DNA of 64,000 nucleotides from Ostreococcus lucimarinus (taxonomy: Eukaryota). The stretch lies in the NCBI GenBank assembly GCA_000092065.1, contig CP000596.1. One strand, written 5' to 3'. A program made the translations under genes and the position numbers. Under the pieces are notes generated by a model that was given only the letters and a program-made list of their open reading frames with translations, was not told where the DNA came from and made no database searches. Positions 1,085 through 48,359 of this stretch are shown here, one piece after another (positions within the stretch are counted from its first letter, which is position 1; every line of letters starts with the position of its first letter).

Positions 1085-2055
1085 CGGCAGCGTCTCGACG
1101 TCTTCCACCGTTCCGAATCTGTACGCGCTGAACGCCCGCGCGCGCGCCGCGTGCGTCGCGTTCGCGCGCATCGCGATTCGCGTCCGATGGGCTATCTCCG
1201 GCGCCCGCGCGCGCGCGTCCTCGCGTCCCGACCGTCGTTCGCGCGCGCGCGCCTCGCGATCGATCCTCGCGCGCGTCTCGCGCGTCCTCTCGCGCCGCCG
1301 CCCGTCGTCGTCGGCGCCGTCGACGAACGGACGCGTCGACGTCTCGCGACGCGCGACGCGCGCGACACCCGAACGACGCGCGCGGCGCCCGAACGACGCG
1401 CGTGCGAGTACGGGCTTTTTTACGTTACGTCTACGCATACAATCGCGATCGAGCGCTATGTCGTGATCGCGTCGTGTTGTGAAATAAACCACCGAGCCGT
1501 TGCCGCGGGCGCCGCGCGCTACGGCGCGTCCGCGTCCGCGCGCTGGCGGCGACGCGCGCCGCCCGGCGCGAGGTCCGCGATCTCGGCCTCGTAATCCCAC
1601 GCCTCGGGCTCGACCTCGGGCGGGTACAGGACGTGCTTGAGCTTCAACAGCGGCGGGACGCTGAACAGGAGCACGGAGAAGGCGAACATGAAGACGTACA
1701 CCTGGTTGTCGGGGTCGCCGTTGAGGTACGCGCCGAGGAGCGCGCGACCGCGGCGGACGACGGCGTCGGGCGACGGGGACGACGACGACGGCGCGGCGTC
1801 GACGGCGTCGACGGCGAGCGCGCGCGCGAGCGGTCGCATGGCGCCGCGCGTCGACGAGTGCGAGGGCGTCCACCGCCGAACGATCGGCGTCGATGGACGC
1901 CGATCGACGCGACGTCGATCGACGCGCGACGCCGATCGACGACGCGCGGGGCGGGCGGCGGGCGGTCGTCGTTTGACGCTTTGACTTCCTCGCGACGCGC
2001 GCGAGGGCGCACAGGACGACGACGAGGGCGCACAGGACGCGCGCGCGCGGCGGTG

Positions 2056-5000
2056 ATGACGACGTCGACGACGACGTTCACGCCGCCCGCGCCGTCGACG
2101 CCGACGACGCTGTGCGATTCGCAAAACGTCGCGTGCGTGAACACGGATGTCGCGGATGCGGAAGTTTTGAGCGCGTTCGCCGCGTACGTGTGCGCCGCGC
2201 TCGCGGTGTTGACCGCGTTCGGGATCGCGAGGAAATACGTGCCGATTTATACCGGTCGAGAACACCTGCGGTCGCTGAAGACGAGCGGGTGCGCACCGCC
2301 GCGATTCGACGCGAGCGCGAATCGCGGCGGCGCGCGAGAGGCGTGCTCGACCACGTACGGATGGATCGCGCACGTGTTGACGGTGGCAGATTCTGACATC
2401 GTGCACACGGCAGGATTGGATGCATTAGTATTCTTAAGAATTGCGCAGTTCGGGACGCAGTTGTTCGCGCCTTTAGCGTTGGTTGGAGTGCTGGCGCTCG
2501 CGCCGACACACCTGTCGAGATCGTATTACGAGACGACGACGACGAGCGAGTCGTCTGCGGCGCGCGAGAGCCACGTGTTGATGCGAATGACGATCGCAAA
2601 CGTGGAACCGACCAGTTCGTTGATGTGGATGCACGTAGTGATGTTTTGGGCGTTCACGGCGTATGCGCTGTGGTTGCTGACGGCCCACTATCGCTCTTAC
2701 GAGTTTTTACGTCAAGTGTACGGAACGACGACGGGCGAGTCGAATCCTTGGCGCGCGGTGCACATCCCGCAAACCGTGCTACAGAAGTTTTTACAGCAAG
2801 GAATAAACACAAACAGAGAGTTCATGACGGAGACTATTGAGGAAGAGGAAAGAGAGGGCGGACAGACTCCTGCGGCGAGAACCATGCCGACGACGATGCT
2901 TCTCGAAGCGTTGCTTGGGCCGAAACGCTCGAACGGTCAGATGTCGACCGAGCAGAAGCTCAGACGTTTTCCTAGGGCATCGTTCATTGAAAGCACTCGT
3001 GGACCATCGATGGCGACGCCATCAAGAGGCTATCACTCCCACTTCGGTCCCCTTCGAGTGACGGAGACGCCGCGTGAAGAATCGTCTCGATCGGTGTCGG
3101 AGATTTCCATGGCGTCCATGAGTGACTTTGACGAAATGTCCAAAGAACATCACTTAGATAAATTGACGAGCGATAGCGAGGATGTCGCGATAAGACACAA
3201 TTGGTGGGAAGGGTTAGACATCGCTGAAGAGGTATGGAGCGACCAATTGAGGAGTGGGAGCGACGGATTTGGATCGACCGATGCGCTCTCTGCTCCGCGG
3301 CAAATCAAAGTTGATATCGAGGGGCGATTTCCTTGCAACGACGCATCAACGTGCGATATTAACCCAGTACCATCGATAGATGATAGACGGTACGTCTCAG
3401 CCGTCGCGGACGAAGTCAGCGAAGACGGCAGCGAAAAGGAAGTGGTGGTCAGCGTGTTGGTGCAAAACTATTGCGTCTTGATGACAGACGTCGGTGGTAA
3501 TCTTCCCGAGGGGGCCGCGGATCCGTGGGAAGGTGTGCGAGCGGTGGAGACATTTTTCGGAGGCCTGTTTCCAGACGACTTCCTAATGGTGATTCCTTTA
3601 CAGGACTACCGCCCTGTGGACGACTTACTCATCGAGCGCGACAAGCTCAAGAATGAAATCGAGAAACAATCGATGTTGCAATCAAAACGGCATGGACACC
3701 GTCGTATGCGTAGAGGGAGCGGTTTTCGGGATGAAATCACGGGTTTACGAGACAGAGTAGCAATTTTAGACCACTTGGTTGTTCAGGAGCGCACCAGAAT
3801 TCTTCAAACCGAGCCCGGGTCGAGTTGTATCGTTGCTTTCAAAAGCCAGTATGCGGCGGCGTGCGCGGCGCAGTGCCGTATCACATCGCGTCAGCGTGAT
3901 CTTTTTGCGATCGAACCCGCGCCGGGACCCGACAATCTCAATTGGCAATCGGTATTACTTCGAAGACGTCAGCGTGAGATCCGATCGATGGTGATTTTCC
4001 CGCTCATTCTCACCATCATACTCATTCCGACGGGAATGTTCACTGGCGTGATGTCGTCGCTATGCGTAGCAAATCAATTCGGTGCAAATCACAACGACGG
4101 CTTGAAGTGGTACTGCTCGAGCGATTCCGCGCGGTATCTACGAATTCTAGTGCAAGGTATTTTACCACCCATTCTGCTGACACTCTGGGAAACGTTTGTC
4201 GTTTCGTTCGGAATGATGTATCTCGTTCAGGCACAGAGCAAGTATTCTAGTCTGAGTAAAACAGACGAGTCGTTTGCGGAGTACTACTTTCTGTGGGCGT
4301 TTCTGAATGTGTTTTTCGGCACTGTATCTGGTTACGCCATTCAACGATATTTGAACGCGCTCAACACGAAAGGTCCGGATGCCATGCTGCAACTTCTCGG
4401 TACGTCGCTGCCGCTCACAAGTAATTTCTTCCTACTTTGGATCGTATTCAGAGGGGTATACCTCCCCACTCAGCGGTTGATTTTCCCTCATCCCGGAGTG
4501 CTATGCATGATCGTCAATCGCTGGCTGTGCTGTTTGGGATGCAACGTGACCGCTCGAGATAGAACGATCAAATACAGCCCGAGATCGGTTCGCCTTGGTC
4601 GCGAAGTCGGTGTGTTCGCCATGGTGATGATGATTGGTCTCGTCTTTTCCACAGTCGCACCTTTGATCACATTACTCTGCACCGTATTTTTCGTCTTTAA
4701 TTTTGTCATATGGCGTTATCACGTCCTATATGTGTACGAACGCTCGTACGAAGCCGGCGGGGCGATGTGGACAACGTTTTGCAACTTGACGATTTACGCG
4801 CTGGTCATCGCGCAGAGCTTTTTGTCGTTTGTCCTCTTGTCCAAGCAAGCGTACGCCGGAGCACTCATTCTCTGGATCACTGTCTTACCGGTTCTAAGCA
4901 AAGCCAGTCACAGATTTCGATCGATCGCGAGCGAGCTTCGCTGGTCCGTGCCCCTACCACAGGCGTCCATCGCGCCTCGCGCCGAGTTCAACGCCGAGAC

Positions 5001-5130
5001 TTACATGCATCCAGCGCTCAAGCGCAACTCCATGGGATGGCACCCAGAAATCGGCAAGGTCTGGCGAGGGTACCCTAACGTCACCGTGAAAGAGACTCGG
5101 ATATTCAGAAGACGTCAACGACATAGATGA
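2056..5130 (+). CDS. OSCA/TMEM63/CSC1-family (DUF221) stress-gated cation channel
   Basis: Single long ORF with many TM helices. It has the RSN1_TM-like N-terminus, a cytosolic PHM7-like block (CIVAFKSQYAAACAAQ) and a DUF221 7TM core. The start is taken at ATG 2056 (MTTSTTTF...) because the upstream part of the ORF is Arg-rich GC spacer. A TGTAA follows the stop at 5135..5139. Confidence 0.7.
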   Translation: MTTSTTTFTPPAPSTPTTLCDSQNVACVNTDVADAEVLSAFAAYVCAALAVLTAFGIARKYVPIYTGREHLRSLKTSGCAPPRFDASANRGGAREACSTTYGWIAHVLTVADSDIVHTAGLDALVFLRIAQFGTQLFAPLALVGVLALAPTHLSRSYYETTTTSESSAARESHVLMRMTIANVEPTSSLMWMHVVMFWAFTAYALWLLTAHYRSYEFLRQVYGTTTGESNPWRAVHIPQTVLQKFLQQGINTNREFMTETIEEEEREGGQTPAARTMPTTMLLEALLGPKRSNGQMSTEQKLRRFPRASFIESTRGPSMATPSRGYHSHFGPLRVTETPREESSRSVSEISMASMSDFDEMSKEHHLDKLTSDSEDVAIRHNWWEGLDIAEEVWSDQLRSGSDGFGSTDALSAPRQIKVDIEGRFPCNDASTCDINPVPSIDDRRYVSAVADEVSEDGSEKEVVVSVLVQNYCVLMTDVGGNLPEGAADPWEGVRAVETFFGGLFPDDFLMVIPLQDYRPVDDLLIERDKLKNEIEKQSMLQSKRHGHRRMRRGSGFRDEITGLRDRVAILDHLVVQERTRILQTEPGSSCIVAFKSQYAAACAAQCRITSRQRDLFAIEPAPGPDNLNWQSVLLRRRQREIRSMVIFPLILTIILIPTGMFTGVMSSLCVANQFGANHNDGLKWYCSSDSARYLRILVQGILPPILLTLWETFVVSFGMMYLVQAQSKYSSLSKTDESFAEYYFLWAFLNVFFGTVSGYAIQRYLNALNTKGPDAMLQLLGTSLPLTSNFFLLWIVFRGVYLPTQRLIFPHPGVLCMIVNRWLCCLGCNVTARDRTIKYSPRSVRLGREVGVFAMVMMIGLVFSTVAPLITLLCTVFFVFNFVIWRYHVLYVYERSYEAGGAMWTTFCNLTIYALVIAQSFLSFVLLSKQAYAGALILWITVLPVLSKASHRFRSIASELRWSVPLPQASIAPRAEFNAETYMHPALKRNSMGWHPEIGKVWRGYPNVTVKETRIFRRRQRHR

Positions 5131-16882: not shown

Positions 16883-17374
16883 ATGGTACACACCGCGTCG
16901 CGCGCTCCGCTCGCGCTACGACTGGCGTCCCCGCGCAGCGTCAGGGACGGGGACGTTGTCCGCCGAGTCGCCAGCGCCGCGCCCGCTCGCGACGATCTAC
17001 CGCAGACCTCGCGCGCGTCCAACGCGTGCTCCACGCTCATCGCTATCGCGCTCACCGCCTCGGCGCCAGCGTGGGCTTTCGACGGCGACGCCGCTGGGGC
17101 GTTCTCCTCCAGAGGTTGCGTCGGGTGCCACGCCGCGGGCGGCAACGTCGTCGCCGCGTCGGCCACGCTCTTCGCTCGTGATCTCGAACGCAACGGTGTG
17201 GCGACCAAAGAAGATATTTCGAACTTGATAGAGCGAGGGAAAGGGAAGATGCCGGGGTACGGGGAGTCGTGCGCGCCCAAGGGCGCGTGCACGTTCGGCG
17301 CGCGTTTGGACGCCGAGGAAATCGACGCATTGGCGACGTACGTCCTCGATCGCGCCGCGGTCGATTGGAAGTGA
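16883..17374 (+). CDS. Cytochrome c6A (c6-like haem protein with a Cys-containing loop insertion), chloroplast lumen
   Basis: A CVGCH haem-binding site is present, followed by ATLFARDLERNGVATKEDISNLIERGKGKMPGYGESCAPKGACTFGARLDAEEIDALATYV. The C..C loop insertion between the Met ligand region and the C-terminal helix is the c6A hallmark. The N-terminus is a transit peptide; an alternative start is the ATG at 16832. Confidence 0.8.
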   Translation: MVHTASRAPLALRLASPRSVRDGDVVRRVASAAPARDDLPQTSRASNACSTLIAIALTASAPAWAFDGDAAGAFSSRGCVGCHAAGGNVVAASATLFARDLERNGVATKEDISNLIERGKGKMPGYGESCAPKGACTFGARLDAEEIDALATYVLDRAAVDWK

Positions 17375-19425: not shown

Positions 19426-20433
19426 TTACAACTTCGGAATGAAGGAGTTCGTCGGCGTGCACTCGCGCATGAAAACCATGGCGGCGCCGAGGTGCATGGC
19501 GCTCAGAGCGCGGCCCCAGGGCTGAACCATTTGCGGCGCCAAAGAAGTGGCGACGATGAGAAGCTCGAGGCACAAGAACAACGCGGCGCGTCGGGTGGAG
19601 TAGCCAGAGATGTAGCCCAAGGCGACGCACGTGCTGACGACGTGGTGCAGCGGGTGGAAGATCAAGCCGGCGACCGGGCCGAGGACGCCCGGACCGGTCA
19701 TGCCGGCGGCGGTGAACTTGGCCATGGACGAGCCTTGCATCATGAGGAAGCTCATCATCAAGCCCGGAACAGCGATCGCGAGCTTGCGAAGCGCGGCGGC
19801 TTGCTTGGAAGAAAAGTAGCCGCGCGCCTTGCGCGTCGTGAGCAACAAAAGAATGGCGTTCGAGTACTTGAACGCCATGGCGTTGCGAATGAACACATCG
19901 CGAACGCCGTGCGAAGAGCCGGCGATCATGGTGTTACCGCATAAGAATAAGCTCATAGCGGTGAAGAGCGCCGGAATGTCACTGTTCGACCCGATGCCCA
20001 AGATGGCGCCGAAACCGATGAGAAACTGCACGAAGCTCCAGTGCGCGCCGAACCACGCGGCGCCGACGGGCGCCAACGGCCCGGACGCTCCCTTCAACCC
20101 GAGCGACTTAAACATCGCCGCCGTGCCTCGTCCACCGAGCTCCGGCACGCCCGCGTACGCGATCGACGTCGCCGCACCGTACGCCCCGAGTCGTTCCAAA
20201 AACGTCTTCAACCCGCTCACCGACGTCAGCATCGTCGCCGTCGCCTTCGCGTTTCCGAGCACGTTCAAATTCACGAGCGTCGTCAACGGATTCCCGATCT
20301 TCGGCAAACTCGGAAGTTTAGACTTCGGGCTCGAGCGCGTGCTTCGCGCCGACTTCTTCGAGCTCGATCTCTTCGAAGGCGCGCGTCGCGCGCCCGCCAT
20401 GGTCGCTTCTCTCGTCGTTGAATTAATTCCCAC
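19426..20433 (-). CDS. Multi-pass membrane protein of unknown function
   Basis: Six or more predicted hydrophobic helices. The composition is non-random with a lower GC third position. The start may be the ATG at 20400. Confidence 0.45.
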   Translation of the reverse strand: MGINSTTREATMAGARRAPSKRSSSKKSARSTRSSPKSKLPSLPKIGNPLTTLVNLNVLGNAKATATMLTSVSGLKTFLERLGAYGAATSIAYAGVPELGGRGTAAMFKSLGLKGASGPLAPVGAAWFGAHWSFVQFLIGFGAILGIGSNSDIPALFTAMSLFLCGNTMIAGSSHGVRDVFIRNAMAFKYSNAILLLLTTRKARGYFSSKQAAALRKLAIAVPGLMMSFLMMQGSSMAKFTAAGMTGPGVLGPVAGLIFHPLHHVVSTCVALGYISGYSTRRAALFLCLELLIVATSLAPQMVQPWGRALSAMHLGAAMVFMRECTPTNSFIPKL

Positions 20434-20646
20434 GCGCGAATGTCAATTCGCCTCCTGAGGTCGCGCTCGCGCGTGTCCCGCGCTCGACCGCGCGTGAACC
20501 GCGCTTCGTGCGTTCGCGCGTGAAGCGCGTTCGTTCTCTCGCTTCGATGCTTCGATGCGTCGGTGGTCCTCGACGCGTCGTTCGCGAACGTTCGTCACGC
20601 GCGCGTCACGAAGTGTCGCGCCGCGCAACCGTCGCTTCGCGCGCGT

Positions 20647-29512: not shown

Positions 29513-30196
29513 CTATTGCCCCTCCGGCATGGCGTCCGGCGGATTCTCCGCGAGCTCGCGCTCGAACGCCTCGAGCGCTTCCTCGTCTTCGCGTTTCAGC
29601 CGCATCCCTCTGTGCCCGCCCGGATACCGTCCCTCCACGAACGCCTTCGCCGCCGTCAGGCTCATCCGCATCTTAAACATCACGTACGCCACCGCCACCG
29701 ACGGCGCCTTCGACCGCCCGCTCATGCAATACACCAACACTCTCATCGGATAAGACTCGTACGCCCTCGCCGACCGCGCGTGCAGCGCCTGCAAGCGCTC
29801 GCACGCGTGTCTAAAATCCAACCCCCTCTCCGGCGGTTCCCTCGCGTTCAGCGTCACCACGCTCAAATACTTCCCACTGCAGCACGGCGTGCAGCTCGGC
29901 ACCGCGTTTATCACCGTTCGCACCCCCGCCGCGAGCAGCGCGCGTTCGCTCGACGTGTGCTCGAACGCGCCCACCAGCATGAACCTCTCGATCACCTCCA
30001 CCACCGTCGTCGACTGCGCGCGCGCCCGAGCGCCGCCGTCCCGCGTCGTCGCTCGTCCGCGCGCGTCGCGGGACGCCTCCGCGTCGCGCGCGCGCACGTG
30101 CCCGCACTCCGCGCACGTCGTCCCGCGCGCGTGGTAGTGCTCGCACGTCTCGCAGCGCTCGTCCGCGAGCGCCTCGTCGCTCGCGCGCTTGGGCAT
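29513..30196 (-). CDS. Dual-specificity-phosphatase-like protein with an N-terminal C4 zinc finger and a non-canonical P-loop
   Basis: DSP fold blocks are present (AGVRTVINA...LVYCMSGRSKAPSVAVAYVMF). The catalytic loop reads YCMSGRSK rather than HCxxGxxR. The N-terminus has CETCEHY...CAECGH. The start is the ATG at 30196; the longer ORF to 30727 is probably spurious. Confidence 0.5.
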   Translation of the reverse strand: MPKRASDEALADERCETCEHYHARGTTCAECGHVRARDAEASRDARGRATTRDGGARARAQSTTVVEVIERFMLVGAFEHTSSERALLAAGVRTVINAVPSCTPCCSGKYLSVVTLNAREPPERGLDFRHACERLQALHARSARAYESYPMRVLVYCMSGRSKAPSVAVAYVMFKMRMSLTAAKAFVEGRYPGGHRGMRLKREDEEALEAFERELAENPPDAMPEGQ

Positions 30197-30552
30197 CGCG
30201 CGCGCGGCGACGGCGACGCGATCGGCGTTCGATCGCGATCGCGTCGCGAGCCGACGCTTCGCGCGCGCGGCGCACTGGCGACGAATCGACGAATCGCCGC
30301 GCGTCGTCGTCGCGTCGCCGGACACGACGGCGCGCGCGCGAACGCCGAGCGACGACGCGCGAGACCGCGACGCGCGGCGATTCGTCGATTCGCGCGACGC
30401 GCCGGATCGCGCGACGCGCCGGATCGCGCGAGAGGACGCGAGAGGACGCGAGAGGACGCGCTTCGACGAGTCGGCACCGATGCCGCGATCGCGCGCGACG
30501 ACGCGCGACGACGACGACGCGTGCGATGCGAACGGCGACGATCCGTGCGCGA

Positions 30553-32204
30553 TGGGGGCGCTGTTGCTCCTGGGGGCGCGCGACGCCGCGCGCGAGGGAC
30601 GCGGGCGCGCGGCGGGGGCGCGGCGGGAGCGACGCGGCGAAGGGACGCGCGAGGGAGCGAGGGACGACGATGGATCGGTAAAAATAAAAATCAACGAAAG
30701 CGCGCTGAAGATGAGGCTTGGGATCAAGAATGCGGATCATCGGCGGTTGATTTATAGGTGGACGAACGCGCTGATTCGCGCGGTGGGGTTGAAGGTGCCG
30801 ACGGGATTGGGGGCGATTGTTTTGCATAACGCGAAGAACAAGCGGGAGAAATTCGATAAATTTTTGTTGCATTACTACGGGAAGGAGTCGTTTTCGCCGG
30901 GGACGTATTGGTACTCGAACGCGAACGCGCTGGCATTTTTTAGCGAAATATTTTACGTCGCGACGAATGGACGCGTGCGGTGCAACGACGACGACATCAT
31001 GCAAATCTTTTCGAAATCCGATCCAAACAGGCAGGCGAGCACGTGGGTGACGTCGTCTGCTACGTTGGAGCGCTTTGGAATCACTCGCATGGAAGTTTTG
31101 GCGATTTATTGCGGTGAACCTCGCTTTGAGAACGGTTGGCCGAAGGGGCAACCGCTTCGCGTGCAGCCACCAAAAATCGTGGTGACTCAGCGCGATGGCT
31201 CGGTCACCGATAAATCTGACTTGACAAATGTGAAGACAAATACCGCTCTCGTCGACCCAGGGCGGGTGGCGCTCAAGCGCGAAAGATCGAAAAAGCACGT
31301 CGTCTCCGTGGTTGGTGTCGACCCGCGAGTCACCTCGTTGGGTTGGAAGCGACAGGCGGTGGAATCGGGACACGCGATGCAGAGGACGACGCTGCTGGAG
31401 CGTCAAGCGATTGAACTTTGCAAGCACATCGAGCCGAGCGAAGAAAACTCACCAATAATGATTATGCCTCTGATTTACGATCAGATTTTACGAGGCACAA
31501 AGTGCTGCGGACCGCGATCCCGACCTTGCGAGAGAAACAAATTTAACAAACACTACGGTAAACTTCTGTCTACCGACGTCTTCTTGCCTGAAGACGTCGG
31601 TGTCGCGCTGAAAATCAAAGACTCCGCGGTTGAAGTGCAAGAGCTTTTCAGGAAGTTCACCAACGCTTTCCTCAAGCTTAAAGTTGCCATGGCGGATTTG
31701 GACGAAGTGAGCGCTACGCGAGACTCAGTATCGACCACGTTAAACGGTGTACTCTCGGTCTTAAATACCGTGGCCGATACGAAAAGGAAAAGTGAACTCG
31801 AAGCCATCATCACCGAGCAACGAGCTCACTTTCATGGGCTCGAGTCGGAAGTCGCGCGCTTGAATAAAATTGTGGACAGCGTTCGCGTTGAGTTCGACAA
31901 GTCGGAGTCCGCGGCGCGTCAGCCCTATTTGGATATCGTACGTCGTTGCTACGAGCTCGGTAGTTTGGTGCAAGATCGAATGCAAAAGAGTATCAACGCA
32001 ACTCTTGACTCGTGCATGACTGATATTGCCGCGTGCGAGATCAAGCAAGTTGGAGCCGACACCGACGAGCTGAACGCACTGTTTGTAAAACGCGATTCGT
32101 TGAAAAGTCTCAACGACACTTTGCGCGACTGCAAGGCGTGCTTTGCTTTCTCGCTCAATACGTTGGACCAACGCTGGGAACAGTTTAAACCGATGCGCTT
32201 GTGA
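30553..32204 (+). CDS. Orphan protein with no recognisable domain, in a markedly lower-GC segment
   Basis: About 550 aa of uninterrupted ORF. Its composition differs from the flanks: AT-rich codons and a Lys/Asn/Ile-rich protein. The start is uncertain (ATG 30553 or 30709). The upstream part of the ORF overlaps the divergent DUSP-like gene. Confidence 0.45.
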
Positions 32205-40353: not shown

Positions 40354-40454
40354 ACGGTCGCGTCGCGTTGTGTCGCGTTTACGCGCGCGTCACAGACGCG
40401 CGCGCCGCGTCCACGCGCGCCTCGCGACGCCGCGCGTCGCGCGAGACGATCTTC

Positions 40455-41629
40455 ATGTCCGCCGCGCGCTCGGAGGCGCCGACGTCGACGCGCGCGACGA
40501 CGAACGCGACGACGACGGTTCAAGATGCGAACGACGGCGTGAGCGCGGCGTTCGCGCTGACGCTGAGCGTCGTCAGCAGCGTGTCGCTCGTGATCGTGAA
40601 CAAACACTTGATCAGCATTCTCGGGTTCAGAGAGGGTGCGTCGCGCGCGACGCGCGAGGGCGCGCGCGAGGCCGGAGGGCGTCCGCTCGCGTCCGGACGC
40701 GTTTCCGGAGTTTTGGATTTTTGGAAATTTCGCGAGACGCGGGGCGACTGACGACGGAGAAACGCGGCGCGATGGCGATCGCAGTGACATTTTTGACGGC
40801 GATGCACATGGTGCTCACGGCGTTGGTGCTTCGCGCGGCGGCGAGGATGGGGTACTTTGAAAAGAAGTCGGTGGGGAGGGCGGAGGTGGTGAAGTTTGGC
40901 GTGTTGAACAGCGCGTCGATCGCGCTGTTGAACTTATCGCTAGGATTTAATTCGGTGGGGTTTTATCAGATGACGAAACTGAGCATCATTCCCGTCACCG
41001 TGGGGTTACAGATAACGTATTTTAACAAGAAATTCAGCGCTGGGGTGAAGATGAGTTTGTTGGTGCTGCTCCTCGGCGTCGGGGCGTCGACGGTGACGGA
41101 TGTGCAGCTCAACGCGACGGGGAGCGTCGTCGGGGGGTTATCCGTGGTCACCACGGCGTTAGGACAGATATTGACCGGATCGATGCAACAAAAGCATCAA
41201 ATCAGCTCAACGCAGCTGCTATGCGCGTCGGCACCGTGGATGGCGATGACGCTCATGATCCTAGCCCCGCCCGTGGACGGCGTCCTGAACGGAGGTAACA
41301 TCCTCGAGTCGAGGTACTCCAACGAGGTCCTCATCGTCGCCTTCATCTCGTGCGGTCTCGCCATCGCGGTAAATTTCGCCACTTTCGCCGTCATCGGCAA
41401 GTGCTCCGCCGTCACCTACCAAGTCGTCGGTCATTTGAAAACCATGCTCATCCTCGGTTTCGGTTTCGCCGTCGTCGGCGACCCAATCGTCGCCAAGAAC
41501 GTCTTCGGTTTGCTCGTCGCTCTTTGCGGCATGTTCCTCTACGCTCGCGCCGAGATGCGCGATCGCGCCGTCGCCACCGCCGCGCCTCGTCGCGCTTCGG
41601 CGGACGAGGAATCAGCCGCTGGAAAGTAG
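40455..41629 (+). CDS. Nucleotide-sugar / triose-phosphate-translocator-family (TPT/NST) transporter, two exons
   Basis: Exon 1 (40455..40635) encodes ...SAAFALTLSVVSSVSLVIVNKHLISILGFRE. The intron (40636..40784) has a GTGCGT donor, a CTGAC branch point and a CAG acceptor. Exon 2 (40785..41629) continues VTFLTAMHMVLTAL, with a 10-TM NST core and the KT motif region (HLKTMLIL). Confidence 0.75.
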
Positions 41630-42906: not shown

Positions 42907-43206
42907 CGGACGGCTGGGTGATTTTTCGGCGATTAGACGTCTCCGCCGCGTCTCGGCTCATGAGCGCGTCCCGAGCGTCCAAACCTCTTCTCACTCTTCG
43001 CCGCGCGACACTTGAAATTGACATAGCAGCGCAACATTCACTCGCGCCGCCGCTCGCGCGCCCCCCCGTCGCGCTTTCGCGGCGCCGTCGACGCCAGTCC
43101 TCGACGCTCGACGCTTCGTTCCCCACTTCCCCACCGCGCACTGTTTACCCATACGACATCGCGCCCTCGAAAATCTCGACGCCGACGCGAAAAAGCGCGC
43201 GATTGA

Positions 43207-46200
43207 TTGCATCCACGTCAGCACACGCCGGCGCGCGCGCCGCGGAGCGCCTCTCGACGCGCGCTCGACATGCGAGGCGCCGCAAAACTTCGATCCGATC
43301 GCGCCGACGTCGCGCGCCCGAGCTCGACGAGCGATCTCGCCGCGCGCGGCGCGCGACGGTCGACGAATCGCGACGATCCGAACGGCCTCGGCGCGTCGAC
43401 GACGGCGCGACGCGCGAGCGACGACGACGCGCGAGCGATGGCGCGATCGAAATCAACGCCGATCGACGCGCGACGGGAGCGAAGGATGAGCGCGGGCGCG
43501 CGAGACGCGAGGACGTGGCGAGCGTTCGCGCGGGGACGGGTGGACGGCACGGGGGTGCGGTTGAGCGCGCTGACGGTGTTGTTTTTGTCCTTCGTCGTGC
43601 TCACGGAGTGGATACGCGATCGCGAGGGAGAAAAGTTTAGCGCGTTTACGCCGAGGTTGATTCGGTCGAGACACGTGCTGGACGTGACGACCGGGGAACG
43701 GGTGATGATGACGGAGGAACGCGCGCGAGGGAGCGGATTGAACGCGGGGAACGCGAGCGGAGCGGCGGCGGCGAATTTGCGAACGTACATGGATCACGGC
43801 GTGGTGCGACTGGAGGCAGAGGTGTGTGGATCGACGTCGCTGATGGCGCTCACGGTGTTCGCGGTGTGCGCGAGCATTGGGTTGAACGATATCATGTGGA
43901 CGGCGTCGAGACAGAGGCGAAGAGTGAGTTCGACGGTTATGTACATCACGATTATCGCGTGTTACACGCACTATTTGATGGTTCAAGGGTCGGATTTGCT
44001 CATGAAGAGCATTGAAGGGACGTACTACTCGCTGTTGCGATATTTGGAGTGGATTTTCACGACGCCCGTGCTGCTGATTTTGGTGTTTCAACTTCACGCT
44101 CTCGTCGTCGGCGGAGCAAAGTCGAGATTTCGCACGGAAATGTACGCCATCTGCGTCGCGGATGAAATCATGCTCATCACCGGCATGCTGGTGAATGAAA
44201 TGAACGGCACGGTGCGAGGTATGCTTCTCACCGTGTCAATCGGTTGCTTCATGTACGTCATCACTACGTGCATTCAACTCTTTCGCGAGGTGCTCGCGAA
44301 CGAGCTCACCAAGGGCGATCGCACGAGATTTGTCATCCTCGCCATCGCCAAGACGGTGTGCTGGACGTCGTTCCCCTTGGTCTTCATGGCAAAAGAGCTG
44401 AACTACATCGATACGAGCGCCGAACACGAGTGGTTTTTGAGTTGTGACGTGTTGACCAAGGCGGCGTACTGCCTATTGCTCTCCGCCGGGAACATTCGCG
44501 TCCTCGACGCCGCTCGTGACGAAGAGATGGCTGACATCGAGCGCTTGACCAAAATGCAGCGAGATTTCTTCTTCAACATCACTCACGAATTGCGCATGCC
44601 TCTGAACTCCGTGATAGGCTTCAACACCTTGGCGGTGGAATCCGGTGAGTTGACGGATGTCGCCGACGGCTTTATCAAAAATTCCCTCACCTCAGCCGAG
44701 GCGTTGCTCGGGTTGATTAATCAAGTCCTGGACTACGCCAAGTTCAACCGCAAGGGCGCCGAAGTCGACCAGGCGCATGGGCTAGAGCTGACCAACGACG
44801 ATTTCACCATCGAAGAGCTCATAGATCAAACTTTGAGCATCTCTCAGCGTCAAGACTACACTGGAAACGTCTTCGTGCGCATCGATCCGAGCTTGTTTCG
44901 CATGACGTACAAGAGTGACTTTTTCCGTTTGCGTCAATGTCTTGTGAACGTCGTGAACAACGCGTTGAAGTTTTCCAGTAATCTCGATCGATCAGGGAAC
45001 GTCATAATCGATGTTCGCGGCTATCTCGAGGAGCAGGAGGCGCGCCTGACGTTTTCCGTCGAGGACAACGGTGTGGGCATTCCGGAAGAGAAACAGAGCG
45101 CTGTCTTCGTGCCGTTCAGCCAGCAGTCCGACTACTCCGCGCTCCGTGTGCAAGGCACCGGTCTCGGTCTTACTATCACGAAGACTATCATCGAGCTCAT
45201 GGGAGGCGTTATCGACTTCACGTCTCGAGAAGACGTCGGCACAAAGTTCAACATCACGCTTCCGCTCGGGTACAAGGCGACGGAGAAACAACACACGGCG
45301 CCGCGAGACTTGAAGGTGCTCATCGGGCTTCGCCCTGGCTTGCAAATGCGCACCGTTCGAAATATTTTAGCGTGCTATCAAGTTAACGTGCAAGATATGC
45401 TCGAAGTTGGTCTCGAAGACGCTCAGGATCGCGAACAAGTGGAGCATTACGTGCGACACTCGCACAAGGCAAACAGACCCGCGGTGTTGTGCATCGAAGA
45501 AGAGCAGTATTTCGCACACGAAAGCTGGTTGAATTCGATCGATCCCGAACCTCACATCTTGATCATATCCAAGTCTTCGAGAATGAAAGACTTGCCGCAT
45601 TCCGCGTGTAAGCGAGCCATCATGAAGCCGATAGCGATGTCAGCGTTCATCGAGACGCTCGAATACCTCGCGGCGGACGCGAAGAACGGCGAAGTCGACG
45701 AGAACGCGATGAGAACACGCGGTCTCGGAGGGAGAGACGAGAGCACTTCGAGTCTCGCTGAAAACTCTATGATGAGAAGTGAGAGAACTTCAAGTGACTC
45801 CAAACGTGCGCCCAAGTCTAGCGCAGAGCAGCCTGACATCGACATCAGCTCCATGCGCGTGCTCCTCGTCGAAGACAACAGGCTGAATCAGCAAGTGGCG
45901 ATTCACTCGATGAAAAGATGTAACGTATTCGTCGATGTCGCTGAGAATGGTTTGATCGCGACGCACAAAGTCGAAGACACCATTCGTGGGAACTCCAAAC
46001 CTTACGACGTCATTTTCATGGACATGATGATGCCCGTGATGGATGGAAACGACGCGACGAGGCGAATTCGCGAGATGGAACAAAGCGCCCCGCCTGGGTA
46101 CAAGCGTAATCTGATCGTCGCCTTGAGCGCAAACGTCGGACCCGAGCATACACTTGCGGTCACGGAAGCTGGATGTGATGGTTCACTCGGGAAACCATTC

Positions 46201-46302
46201 TACCCGAGCACGTTGCGCTCGCTTTTGTATTCCATCTTTCTCGACGAATACGAAGGCTTCGAGGGTGAGACGATGAACACGGCGTCGAGGCCCGGACACT
46301 GA
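43207..46302 (+). CDS. Histidine-kinase rhodopsin (HKR): microbial (type-I) rhodopsin 7TM fused to HisKA, HATPase_c and response-regulator receiver domains
   Basis: The rhodopsin helix C is RYLEWIFTTPVLLIL (BR RYADWLFTTPLLLL; Glu at the D85 position, Leu at the D96 position). Helix F has CWTSFPLVF. Helix G has the retinal lysine in SCDVLTKAAYCLL (BR DVSAKVGF). The H-box is FFFNITHELRMPLNSVIGF. The N/G boxes are NNALKFS...VEDNGVGIPEE...GTGLGLTITKTIIELMGG. The REC domain is MRVLLVEDNRLNQ...YDVIFMDMMMPVMDG...LSANV. No cyclase domain follows. The start is uncertain (ATG 43207, 43438 or 43486). Confidence 0.85.
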   Translation: MHPRQHTPARAPRSASRRALDMRGAAKLRSDRADVARPSSTSDLAARGARRSTNRDDPNGLGASTTARRASDDDARAMARSKSTPIDARRERRMSAGARDARTWRAFARGRVDGTGVRLSALTVLFLSFVVLTEWIRDREGEKFSAFTPRLIRSRHVLDVTTGERVMMTEERARGSGLNAGNASGAAAANLRTYMDHGVVRLEAEVCGSTSLMALTVFAVCASIGLNDIMWTASRQRRRVSSTVMYITIIACYTHYLMVQGSDLLMKSIEGTYYSLLRYLEWIFTTPVLLILVFQLHALVVGGAKSRFRTEMYAICVADEIMLITGMLVNEMNGTVRGMLLTVSIGCFMYVITTCIQLFREVLANELTKGDRTRFVILAIAKTVCWTSFPLVFMAKELNYIDTSAEHEWFLSCDVLTKAAYCLLLSAGNIRVLDAARDEEMADIERLTKMQRDFFFNITHELRMPLNSVIGFNTLAVESGELTDVADGFIKNSLTSAEALLGLINQVLDYAKFNRKGAEVDQAHGLELTNDDFTIEELIDQTLSISQRQDYTGNVFVRIDPSLFRMTYKSDFFRLRQCLVNVVNNALKFSSNLDRSGNVIIDVRGYLEEQEARLTFSVEDNGVGIPEEKQSAVFVPFSQQSDYSALRVQGTGLGLTITKTIIELMGGVIDFTSREDVGTKFNITLPLGYKATEKQHTAPRDLKVLIGLRPGLQMRTVRNILACYQVNVQDMLEVGLEDAQDREQVEHYVRHSHKANRPAVLCIEEEQYFAHESWLNSIDPEPHILIISKSSRMKDLPHSACKRAIMKPIAMSAFIETLEYLAADAKNGEVDENAMRTRGLGGRDESTSSLAENSMMRSERTSSDSKRAPKSSAEQPDIDISSMRVLLVEDNRLNQQVAIHSMKRCNVFVDVAENGLIATHKVEDTIRGNSKPYDVIFMDMMMPVMDGNDATRRIREMEQSAPPGYKRNLIVALSANVGPEHTLAVTEAGCDGSLGKPFYPSTLRSLLYSIFLDEYEGFEGETMNTASRPGH

Positions 46303-46414: not shown

Positions 46415-47353
46415 TCACGTCGCGCTTCCTTCTCGTAGGCGCTCTTCGACCGCGTCCATCGCCGCGGCGTCGAACCCCAAAATCTCGTACCACATTTTCC
46501 CATTCGCAGACTTCAAGTCTTTTTCACACTTCAAATTGACGCTCGCGCGGCGCACTGCCGCCGCCGCGATCGTCGGCGCCTCCTCTTCCCCCACGGGCTC
46601 CGCCGTCGCGAAGAGGGCATCCAACAGCGTCGCGCTCGCCGCGCACGCCAATTCCCTACTACCTCCGATCACATGTACGATGTGAAACATGTACACGTGC
46701 GGTTGCGCCGTGTTCAACTCATATTCCATCGCGCGAAGCATCTCTTGCTCCAAAACTAAGATTCGATCCTTGTACGCGTAATACAACGCCCCCGTCGCCG
46801 CGTTCATCGCGTCGCCGTCGCGCGCCGCGTTCATCGCCTCCGCACCCTCATCTCCCGCCCCACGACCCACGACCGCGTACCCAGCCAGCATTTCACCCTC
46901 CGCCCGTTCTCTCGCGTCCGCCTCGCTCAACCGCACGTCCGCGCGATCATCCAGCGCCACCGTTCCGTCCTCGCCGTCGAGCGTCGCCGCCGTCGCCGCC
47001 ACGACGTCCGCCAACCGCACCACCGACTCCTCCAGCTTACACGCCAGGTAGATCCCCGCCTGCACGACCAATTCGGGCGAGACTTTCGCGCGCTTCCGCG
47101 CCTCGTCCTCGCTCGCGCGCTCGATCGCGTCGCGCCGTTTATAAAACTTTAAAACGTTCGCCAGCGCCGTCACCGCGGTGTCGATCGGGAGGTTCAGCAG
47201 CTCGCACGCGCGCCGACACAGCGCGCGCGCCTGCGCGTTGCGACGCGCGCGACGCGCGTCGTCGCCGTCGCTCGACGCGACCGGCGCGCGGGACATGCGT
47301 CGCGGTGTGCGGAGATCAATCGACGTTCTAAATTTATGGCGCGACGTCGTCAT
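46415..47353 (-). CDS. Transcription-type cyclin (cyclin L/K/T-like, two cyclin folds)
   Basis: LCRRACELLNLPIDTAVTALANVLKFYKRRD...VVQAGIYLACKLEE is cyclin-box helix 1-3. The second fold is ILVLEQEMLRAMEYEL...AAAAVRRASVNL. The start is taken at the ATG at 47353 because the longer ORF (to 47506) would abut the divergent gene's ATG. Confidence 0.6.
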   Translation of the reverse strand: MTTSRHKFRTSIDLRTPRRMSRAPVASSDGDDARRARRNAQARALCRRACELLNLPIDTAVTALANVLKFYKRRDAIERASEDEARKRAKVSPELVVQAGIYLACKLEESVVRLADVVAATAATLDGEDGTVALDDRADVRLSEADARERAEGEMLAGYAVVGRGAGDEGAEAMNAARDGDAMNAATGALYYAYKDRILVLEQEMLRAMEYELNTAQPHVYMFHIVHVIGGSRELACAASATLLDALFATAEPVGEEEAPTIAAAAVRRASVNLKCEKDLKSANGKMWYEILGFDAAAMDAVEERLREGSAT

Positions 47354-47504
47354 CGCGCGACGCGACGCGTTTTCGGCGCGGTCCCGTCGCGGCCGTCGAC
47401 GCGGCGCGCGACGCGACGCGCGCGACGACGCGCGAGGCGGTTCGCGAGGACGCGCGGACGCGCGAACGCGCCGGAAACGCGTCGCGACGGTTCGTTTGAG
47501 CGTC

Positions 47505-48359
47505 ATGGGGAGCGATTACGCGCGACGCGTGCGGCGCGCTCGCGCGCTCGCGCGCGATCCCACGACGGCGCGCGACGCGCTGAGGGCGTTTTGCGCGTCC
47601 GACGCGAGCGCGGTCGGCGCGGTCGCGACGTTGGCCACGGCTGGGGCGAGCGGGTGCGGGAAAACGGCGCTCGTGCGGCGATTCTTCGCCGAGTCGCGGC
47701 GTCGACGCGGATGCGCGAACGCGGACGCGAGCGAGGATCGGCGCGCGACGCGGACGATCGGGATGGATTTCGGCGTGATGTCGTGCGCGCTCGAGCGCTC
47801 GGACGGCGACGAGGACGGTGGCGAAGCGCGCGCGCCGGCGCGCGCGCGCGGACGGTTTTTCGATCCGAGCGGCGCCGCGGCGCACGCGGCGTGTCGCGCC
47901 GCGGCGTACAGACGCGCCGACGGCGTCGTCTACGTCCTCGATCAGACGCTCGGAGACGTCGACGCGCGAGCCATCGAGCGCGGGCTTCGCGAGATCGTCG
48001 ACGCGCGGCGCGGCGAGACGCGCGGCGTCGTCCGCGTGCTCTTCGCGACGCGTCGGCGCTCGGGCGTCGACCGAATCGACGCCGCGACGACCGTCGACCG
48101 TCGCGCGCGAAAGCCGAGACCGACGCCGCGAGACGATCCATTCGCGCTGCTGCGCGACGTCAAAGCCGCGTGCGCGGCGGTGCTGACGACGAATCCGCTC
48201 GACGTCGCCTTCGTCCTCGTCGAGCCGCCGCGCGGGGCGTCGCTCGCGCGCGCGCTCGATTCGCTCCGCCATCTGACCCTCGTCGAAGTCGACGCTCGCG
48301 CTGGAACCGGCGTCGTCGACGCTTTTCACGCGTTATTCGCCGTCGCGCGGCGCGAGTGA
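47505..48359 (+). CDS. Degenerate Rab-like small GTPase, closest to IFT22/RABL5
   Basis: The P-loop is GASGCGKTAL (GxxxxGKT). A switch-I-like TIGMDFGV is present. FDPSG replaces WDTAGQ. ADGVVYVLD matches DAHGVVIVFN of IFT22. The NKxD motif is absent (LFATRRR), suggesting altered or no nucleotide specificity. Confidence 0.45.
   Translation: MGSDYARRVRRARALARDPTTARDALRAFCASDASAVGAVATLATAGASGCGKTALVRRFFAESRRRRGCANADASEDRRATRTIGMDFGVMSCALERSDGDEDGGEARAPARARGRFFDPSGAAAHAACRAAAYRRADGVVYVLDQTLGDVDARAIERGLREIVDARRGETRGVVRVLFATRRRSGVDRIDAATTVDRRARKPRPTPRDDPFALLRDVKAACAAVLTTNPLDVAFVLVEPPRGASLARALDSLRHLTLVEVDARAGTGVVDAFHALFAVARRE

Follow-up and report, generated by a model that had tools for sequence, protein, structure and literature searches.

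The closest described systems to the gene considered here are the rhodopsin-histidine kinases of Mamiellales. In Ostreococcus tauri, Rhod-HK, also known as the histidine-kinase rhodopsin (HKR) Ot-HKR, and LOV-HK are the sole histidine kinases, and both have been modelled as light inputs acting via a single HPt onto TOC1 (Thommen et al. 2015, PMC4343026). Passages of PMC7693036 and PMC10662239 that cite Luck et al. 2019 (Biochemistry 58:1878) present Ot-HKR as green-absorbing, salt-sensitive and dusk-expressed. Under the name Rhod-HK1, a protein of Rhodopsin-HisKA-HATPase-REC type was catalogued in seven of seven sequenced Mamiellales, the Ostreococcus lucimarinus entry being Ol16g01360 (ISME J 2025, PMC12704426); according to the same study each Mamiellales genome has a single HPT elsewhere, in O. 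lucimarinus Ol08g04140, and several REC proteins of this species are encoded elsewhere too. For Chlamydomonas Cop5 and the cyclase opsins of two-component type (2c-Cyclops), bimolecular fluorescence complementation showed a ‘type Ib’ topology of eight transmembrane (TM) helices with a cytosolic N-terminus, and an ‘intermediate section of unknown function’ is named in the same paper (PMC6284317). Here we compare with these systems a locus at positions 43207..46302 (+) of a 64,000-nucleotide stretch of O. lucimarinus DNA (contig CP000596.1 of assembly GCA_000092065.1), referred to below as the window.

We read this locus as the single Rhod-HK (HKR) gene of O. lucimarinus, orthologous to O. tauri Rhod-HK/Ot-HKR, with a protein that most likely begins at ATG 43486 and with a proposed role in a light-to-HPt phosphorelay; we put the probability of this reading at about 0.9. 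The gene, its architecture, the absence of a cyclase and the presumed output pathway are already known from publications, and our contributions are at the level of annotation: the start codon, an extra N-terminal helix (TM0) and a pseudo-receiver. An earlier reading of the DNA letters alone (the sequence-only reading) had implied that a cyclase-less HKR would be new, which does not hold, as the same architecture was published in O. tauri and catalogued in the seven Mamiellales. The single open reading frame (ORF) of 1031 codons that it claimed was indeed found, uninterrupted, at 43207..46302 (+). Residue numbers below are those of this ORF; its features are as follows (AF2, AlphaFold2; pLDDT, its per-residue confidence score; BR, bacteriorhodopsin).

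43207..43485 (+), extension of the ORF, aa 1-93, R 23 % and A 19 %; most likely a 5' leader, not coding
43486..46302 (+), most probable coding sequence of Rhod-HK/HKR, 938 aa plus TGA stop, starting at the ATG of M94
43546..43620 (+), TM0, predicted extra N-terminal helix, aa 114-138, GTGVRLSALTVLFLSFVVLTEWIRD, from hydrophobicity, conservation and AF2
43621..43827 (+), TM0-TM1 loop, aa 139-207, presumably on the extracellular or lumenal side; ahead of TM1 it has a short helix and a beta-hairpin
43828..44484 (+), seven-helix type-1 rhodopsin domain, aa 208-426, from Pfam Bac_rhodopsin, AF2 and phmmer alignments
44047-44049 (+), E281 in helix C, at the position of BR D85
44080-44082 (+), L292 in helix C, at the position of BR D96
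44446-44448 (+), D414 in helix G, at the position of BR D212
44458-44460 (+), Schiff-base K418 in helix G, at the position of BR K216
44500..44757 (+), helical linker and DHp domain (Pfam HisKA), aa 432-517, with the phospho-acceptor H460 at 44584-44586
44800..45279 (+), catalytic ATP-binding (CA) domain (HATPase_c), aa 532-691, containing the N, G1, F and G2 boxes
45304..45720 (+), pseudo-receiver, aa 700-838, predicted (beta-alpha)5 CheY-like fold lacking the phospho-acceptor pocket
45721..45840 (+), disordered acidic/Ser-rich linker, aa 839-878, pLDDT 26-36
45856..46239 (+), genuine receiver, aa 884-1011, with E889-D890, the phospho-acceptor D939 (46021-46023), S974 and K996

As proposed earlier, a rhodopsin, a HisKA/HATPase kinase and a receiver lie on one ORF: the profile search gave four Pfam domains, all above their gathering scores, namely Bac_rhodopsin (aa 216-429, 75.4 bits versus a cut-off of 24.6, profile positions 8-221 of 224), HisKA (aa 451-513, 38.7 bits), HATPase_c (aa 573-687, 88.1 bits, with PDB kinase matches down to E 1e-31) and Response_reg (aa 885-1006, 53.0 bits). 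The 938-aa form of the protein (P0001) was called, 100 % identical, on 12 metagenomic contigs with the same gene neighbourhood, and it is the representative of a 353-member marine metagenome cluster (ENA, Logan, JGI, Tara). The closest cluster after its own, 73-75 % identical and collinear from end to end, holds the O. tauri protein CAL57859.1/XP_003083892.1 (Rhod-HK/Ot-HKR), and the opsin-HisKA-HATPase_c-REC architecture was seen in at least 40 homologues. Alignment both to Ot-HKR and to BR, suggested by the sequence-only reading, was thus obtained, with the lysine and the motifs in BR register.

The register of the opsin was set by phmmer alignments. In alignments to BR, 6KFQ and 7CJ3 the segment RYLEWIFTTPVLLIL pairs with BR RYADWLFTTPLLLLD, so that E281 stands at D85, T285 at T89 and L292 at D96; DVLTK pairs with BR DVSAK, so that D414 stands at D212 and K418 at K216, while W386/P390 correspond to W182/P186. 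K418 falls on K216 also in the alignments to 6KFQ, 7CJ3 and 8XX8. The earlier assignments, a type-1 rhodopsin with its RY..W..TTP motif in register with BR and solved rhodopsins, a Schiff-base Lys in DVLTK of helix G, and Glu at the counter-ion with Leu at the D96 position, all agree with these alignments. In a set of 41 homologues (34-76 % identity), to which the conservation counts below refer unless another set is named, R278, E281, W282, T285, T286, L289, W386, P390, D414 and K418 are invariant, and the position of L292 is occupied by Leu in 40. E281 is a conservative D-to-E change with respect to BR D85, and F389 and F393 stand where BR has Y185 and W189. The motif, with Leu in place of the proton donor D96, also supports the sensory, non-pumping character suggested before. 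The seven opsin helices were modelled by AF2 with pLDDT 80-93.

Conservation of the phosphorelay residues is high too. The H-box FFFNITHELRMPLNSVIGFNTLA is invariant and H460-E461 are invariant or kept in 40 of 41; N585, D620/G622/G624 (G1), F637 and G650/G652/G654 (G2) are invariant or present in at least 40; the five active-site residues of the receiver, E889-D890, D939, S974 and K996, are invariant or found in 40. The receiver can be aligned with those of plant and yeast hybrid kinases (7P8E, SLN1); D939, in DVIFMDMMMP, coincides with the acceptor Asp of the plant-type receiver 7P8E (...FMDIQMP...), in line with the phospho-acceptor named by the sequence-only reading. Such conservation of residues supports a working light-regulated phosphorelay and argues against a pump or a pseudogene. 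In the AF2 model the DHp has long helices at aa 432-479 and 486-517. It is the most conserved of the domains compared, with an identity of 97 % in close homologues and of 82 % in distant ones (distant opsin 34 %, distant CA 44 %), which suggests a conserved phosphotransfer interface, possibly a constrained contact with the receiver, HPt or linker. The long invariant runs of the DHp include FFFNITHELRMPLNSVIGFNTLA and SAEALLGLINQVLD.

The ORF ends 25 residues past the receiver; only 112 bp separate the HKR stop from the end of the convergent gene downstream (46415..47506, -), which leaves no room for a cyclase exon. No cyclase domain was found in the protein by Pfam at E up to 0.1, and 13 of 13 aligned orthologues end in the same ...PG(H/N/M) tail; the earlier statement that the ORF stops after the receiver without a cyclase output is therefore correct. 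The identity of a 2c-Cyclop was considered and rejected, there being no class III guanylyl cyclase after the receiver. The C-terminal tail itself (46285-46299), ...(R/K)PG(H/N/M), is kept together with a preceding EY.GF throughout the aligned orthologues, even at 40 % identity; Y1015, G1017 and F1018 are invariant, and P1029 and G1030 are conserved in at least 90 %. This conserved C-terminus may serve as a short terminal motif for targeting or for interaction.

An extra N-terminal helix, raised as a possibility in the sequence-only reading, is supported, not proven, in the Ostreococcus/Bathycoccus clade, where it would match the type Ib opsins in giving eight TM helices. The segment GTGVRLSALTVLFLSFVVLTEW (aa 114-135) has a Kyte-Doolittle 19-mer score of 1.84, at the level of the opsin helices; seven positions (G114, G116, L122, L125, F129, E134 and R137) are invariant in 13 orthologues, some only ~40 % identical overall; and in the AF2 model aa 119-138 form a helix of pLDDT 80-91. 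As the kinase needs cytosolic ATP, the end of TM7 should be cytosolic, and an eighth helix would place the N-terminus in the cytosol too. The idea of TM0 as a family-wide feature was ruled out: the segment upstream of TM1 is strongly hydrophobic in only 13 of the 41 homologues and weakly so in more distant ones. The loop that follows TM0 contains, in the AF2 model, a helix (aa 149-161) and a hairpin (aa 193-202), with pLDDT below 50 at aa 159-190, and its motif RTYxDHGxVRLExEVCGS is kept in close orthologues; the loop also has one NAS sequon.

With these elements the chain would run from a short cytosolic N-terminus through TM0, seven opsin helices with retinal at K418, a helical linker, DHp (H460), CA, pseudo-receiver and disordered linker to the receiver (D939). 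Isomerisation of retinal at K418 would alter the protonation of the Schiff base and of the E281/D414 counter-ion pair; as there is no cytoplasmic proton donor of BR type (L292), the protein would signal instead of pumping. The helical linker (aa 432-450) could then relay the motion of TM7 to the DHp dimer, where the change would modulate autophosphorylation of H460 by the CA domain, followed by transfer to D939. Since the protein has no effector domain, the phosphoryl group would go to the single HPt and then to response regulators (TOC1, REC-GARP and others), so that information on light colour and photoperiod may be fed to the circadian clock. The suggestion that the effector is perhaps a separate response regulator stands insofar as no effector domain is present here; the output is not blank, though, as a route from HPt to TOC1/REC has already been proposed.

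Several points weigh against this reading. The start codon was assigned by conservation and codon statistics, not by transcript data, and the equation of the locus with Ol16g01360 follows from species identity and the single-copy listing, not from annotation coordinates. The DHp region has low pLDDT in the AF2 monomer model. The related 2c-Cyclops are inhibited by light (PMC6284317); for the present protein the direction of the effect, the partners and the role of the pseudo-receiver are points that we only infer. On the matter of identifiers, PMC10662239 (J Exp Bot 2023) assigns to the phototropin of Ostreococcus RCC809 and to its HKR one and the same ID, Od15g00300, while the table of PMC12704426 lists Rhod-HK1 of RCC809 as Od16g01400; the former ID is probably a typographical error.

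Between the CA domain and the phospho-accepting REC, the AF2 model has a folded domain of ~140 residues (aa 700-838) that was previously unannotated. The acidic Ser-rich linker described by the sequence-only reading is real for aa ~839-878, where identity is 21 % even among close orthologues and length varies, but the ~140 residues ahead of it belong to this predicted fold. The best PDB match to the whole AF2 model was full-length ShkA (6QRJ; E 5e-18, 580 columns). We call the domain a pseudo-receiver. The loop after beta1 reads GLR, with no acidic pair; the end of beta3, the Asp position of receivers, is occupied by E764 (45496-45498) here and by V/E/A/I across the family, never by Asp; K807-P808 are kept at the end of beta5. 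The domain is invisible to sequence profiles here, as reported for RcsC. Pseudo-receivers between CA and REC are reported to be widespread and often missed by sequence searches, with ShkA, GacS/BarA, RcsC and cytokinin receptors as examples (PMC7010744); for HKRs we found no description of one in the literature searched.

By analogy with ShkA and cytokinin receptors, the pseudo-receiver is probably a structural or autoinhibitory docking module. One could instead suppose that aa 700-838 are a second regulatory input which binds a small molecule or partner and so controls whether the receiver can reach the DHp, in the way known for c-di-GMP and the pseudo-receiver of ShkA; we see this as possible, if rather unlikely. 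The receiver fold and the ShkA match would suit such a role, and it has been proposed that pseudo-receivers between CA and REC form an input-domain class that is widespread and unrecognised (PMC7010744). Conservation can be read both ways: identity is 58-66 % among close orthologues, C723 and P808 are invariant and K807 is mostly conserved, whereas distant homologues are only 16 % identical, which suggests a weakly constrained surface. Ot-HKR photochemistry is reported, in the passages cited above, to be salt-dependent; still, the effect described there concerns the rhodopsin fragment, not aa 700-838. Neither a ShkA-like linker motif nor a ligand site was identified, no link to a nucleotide second messenger is known for this protein, and a role in structure or dimerisation alone, which is what is assumed for cytokinin receptors, would fit just as well. 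If a second input were present, the protein would integrate light with a metabolic or ionic signal. The broader proposal, that in Mamiellales Rhod-HK generally the pseudo-receiver is a functional second input or an autoinhibitory gate like ShkA REC1, combining light colour with a metabolite, ion or partner signal before HPt is phosphorylated, is drawn from the same analogy and seems to us slightly more doubtful still; with it goes the idea that the ‘intermediate section’ of Chlamydomonas 2c-Cyclops may hold the same module.

The other question concerns the N-terminus. Position 43207 is a TTG right behind an in-frame TGA (43204), that is, a mechanical limit of the ORF and not a eukaryotic start codon; in-frame ATGs follow at 43270 (aa 22), 43438 (aa 78) and 43486 (aa 94). 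We conclude that the coding sequence most likely starts at ATG 43486 and gives a protein of 938 aa, ~93 codons shorter than the ORF, because of N-terminal non-conservation, Arg/Ala composition, flat codon statistics and the positions of single-nucleotide polymorphisms (SNPs). In 13 aligned orthologues there is zero conservation upstream of ~aa 98 and lengths vary wildly; the O. tauri reference model begins, by alignment, at the position matching aa 96. In aa 1-93 the GC content of the three codon positions is flat (0.72/0.71/0.76) and the codon log-odds is -0.10 without frame preference, unlike aa 94 onward, where GC at the third position is far above that at the second and the log-odds reaches +0.21 to +0.43 in the ORF frame only (overall +0.40). 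The composition of aa 1-93 resembles that of the spurious Arg-rich ORFs seen in every frame of the GC-rich window DNA. Four near-identical metagenomic loci show 4 SNPs in aa 1-93, 4/4 at codon position 1 or 2; an attempt to place the start codon by population variation was given up, as four SNPs are too few to decide.

The ‘long Arg/Ser-rich N-terminus’ of the sequence-only reading is thus most likely an untranslated leader read through from TTG. That the full 1031-codon ORF, or a form from ATG 43270 or 43438, is translated, with the Arg/Ser stretch as a genuine cytosolic extension of, e.g. a targeting or regulatory nature, is an improbable alternative, for which one may cite the frame open from 43207 with its ATGs at aa 22 and aa 78, the positive charge that would suit the cytosolic side ahead of TM0, and the long low-complexity N-terminal extensions in several orthologue ORFs. 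Versions of 1010 and 1031 aa were also produced by JGI gene callers, but these stem from prokaryote-style longest-ORF calling, and the TTG start, the variable length, the missing codon periodicity and the composition given above all speak for the 938-aa form.

Finally, that the rhodopsin is a light-driven ion pump or channel joined to the kinase by an unrelated fusion or a gene-model artefact can hardly be believed: it retains, like pumps, the carboxylate pair E281/D414, R278 and the TTP motif, but the position of the BR D96 donor is Leu in all but one of the homologues, the fusion is one unbroken ORF whose domain order is kept in more than 40 homologues and recurs on 12 independent contigs, close orthologues conserve the TM7-DHp linker at 82 %, and the literature calls the O. 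tauri orthologue a photochromic sensory pigment.

Upstream of the Rhod-HK gene lie two genes with consecutive accessions in O. lucimarinus CCE9901.

40370..41629, upstream gene, TPT/SLC35-type transporter, 254/254 identical to CCE9901 ABP00166.1
42088..42906 (+), TPR protein (Pfam TPR_12), 271/272 identical to CCE9901 ABP00167.1, the one difference being the GTG start as called

A TPR gene is found upstream of Rhod-HK in O. tauri as well; it is a syntenic marker, not a part of the photoreceptor. The TPR and HKR ORFs share a reading frame and are separated by six in-frame stops (42904, 42919, 42934, 42961, 43024 and 43204). The O. tauri model OUS45390.1 (1207 aa), which shares a 90 % cluster with the TPR protein and with Rhod-HK alike, appears to fuse the two and is probably a gene-model artefact. 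In the intergenic region between TPR and HKR the near-identical metagenomic contigs L001-L004 carry 3-bp and 8-bp indels relative to the window (42935; 43119-43126); the HKR protein is 100 % identical in them, and thus the variation is confined to the non-coding leader/promoter. The Evening Element AAATATCT, sought on account of proposed CCA1 repression, is absent from the HKR promoter; in the window it occurs once, at 17212, which is no more than chance would give.

The convergent gene (363-aa ORF) gave a sub-threshold match to Cyclin_N (E 0.0045; 17.2 bits versus a cut-off of 23), and its 293-aa product in the metagenome calls has no Pfam match; it may encode a divergent cyclin-like protein. 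Two further ORFs, 30138-32201 (+, 688 aa) and 19429-20442 (-, 338 aa), are coding-like (Arg 0.11 and 0.05) with no Pfam family at E up to 0.001, and may be lineage-specific proteins. A frame of 1215 codons at 1483-5127 (+) has RSN1_TM, PHM7_cyt and RSN1_7TM domains; it belongs to the OSCA/TMEM63-type calcium-permeable channel family and is unrelated to the HKR. Besides this RSN1/OSCA-type channel the window codes for an Rce1-like protease, a methyltransferase, a mitochondrial carrier, ALG3, Zn-ADH, an acyltransferase, the CPSase small subunit, an FHA protein, AP-complex subunits, ribosomal protein S4e, transaldolase, a KH protein and a NUBPL-type ATPase, i.e. it is ordinary Ostreococcus chromosome. 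No HPt, REC or cyclase was found among the larger ORFs of the 64-kb window.

Rhod-HK together with LOV-HK is thought to report the blue/green ratio, hence depth and photoperiod, to the TOC1/CCA1 clock of a picoeukaryote that ranks among the most abundant in the ocean, and the exact protein described here is abundant in marine metagenomes, as its cluster of 353 members shows. For those who work on HKRs, a better-supported start codon (938 aa) should be useful in the design of expression constructs, as should the support for an 8-TM topology in the Ostreococcus/Bathycoccus clade; the pseudo-receiver, which gives the cytoplasmic part a layout like that of ShkA and cytokinin receptors, can guide construct cuts and mutants.

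Among opsins of solved structure, the Rh-PDE of Salpingoeca rosetta (7CJ3/7D7Q) is one of the closest (E 2e-9). As in our protein, the residue at the position of D85 is Glu (RYAEW versus RYLEW) and a helical linker leads from TM7 to a cytosolic enzyme; it also has a TM0 helix, such as is predicted here. Its output is a phosphodiesterase in place of the two-component module, and the lineage of eukaryotes to which it belongs is another one. The predicted cytoplasmic layout DHp-CA-pseudoREC-linker-REC is shared with ShkA (6QRJ, Caulobacter), GacS/BarA, RcsC and the plant cytokinin receptors AHK2-4. In comparison with the ShkA and AHK types the input here is a fused rhodopsin and not c-di-GMP or a CHASE domain, and with only 22 % sequence identity to ShkA the likeness is one of architecture, not of orthology.

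The Chlamydomonas/Volvox proteins Cop5/HKR1 (Luck 2012) and 2c-Cyclops (Cop6/Vop6; Tian 2018), enzymerhodopsins like the window protein, also carry opsin, HK, an intermediate section and REC in one chain (PMC6284317). An extra N-terminal TM helix (8 TM, type Ib), a cytosolic N-terminus and an intramolecular phosphorelay are described for them (PMC6284317) and may be matched here. These proteins, of 2200-2500 aa, have an intermediate section of ~500 aa and a C-terminal guanylyl cyclase (degenerate in Cop5), whereas the window protein ends after the receiver. Cop5 lacks the D85 carboxylate and Cop6 lacks D85, D96 and D212, while E281 and D414 are present in the window protein.

The same architecture as that of the window protein is found in Rhod-HK1 of the Mamiellales (Bathycoccus, Ostreococcus spp. 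and Micromonas spp.; PMC12704426), and the window protein is the O. lucimarinus member of this family. Its proposed partners, HPT, TOC1 and REC-GARP/WD40/CAMK, are encoded elsewhere in the genome, and the published domain scheme of Rhod-HK1 omits TM0 and the pseudo-receiver (PMC12704426). Micromonas has the extra paralogues Rhod-HK2 and Rhod-HK3, which Ostreococcus lacks (PMC12704426). The nearest relative, O. tauri Rhod-HK/Ot-HKR (CAL57859.1, ostta17g01230), is 75 % identical in the 7TM domain, 95 % in the DHp, 84 % in the CA and 81 % in the REC. Most of the substitutions relative to O. lucimarinus, a clade A species, are found in four regions: the loop between TM0 and TM1, TM4-TM5, the pseudo-receiver (66 % identity) and the disordered linker (25 %). 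The two proteins share the predicted TM0, domain order, the absence of a cyclase, the ...RPG C-terminus and an upstream TPR neighbour.

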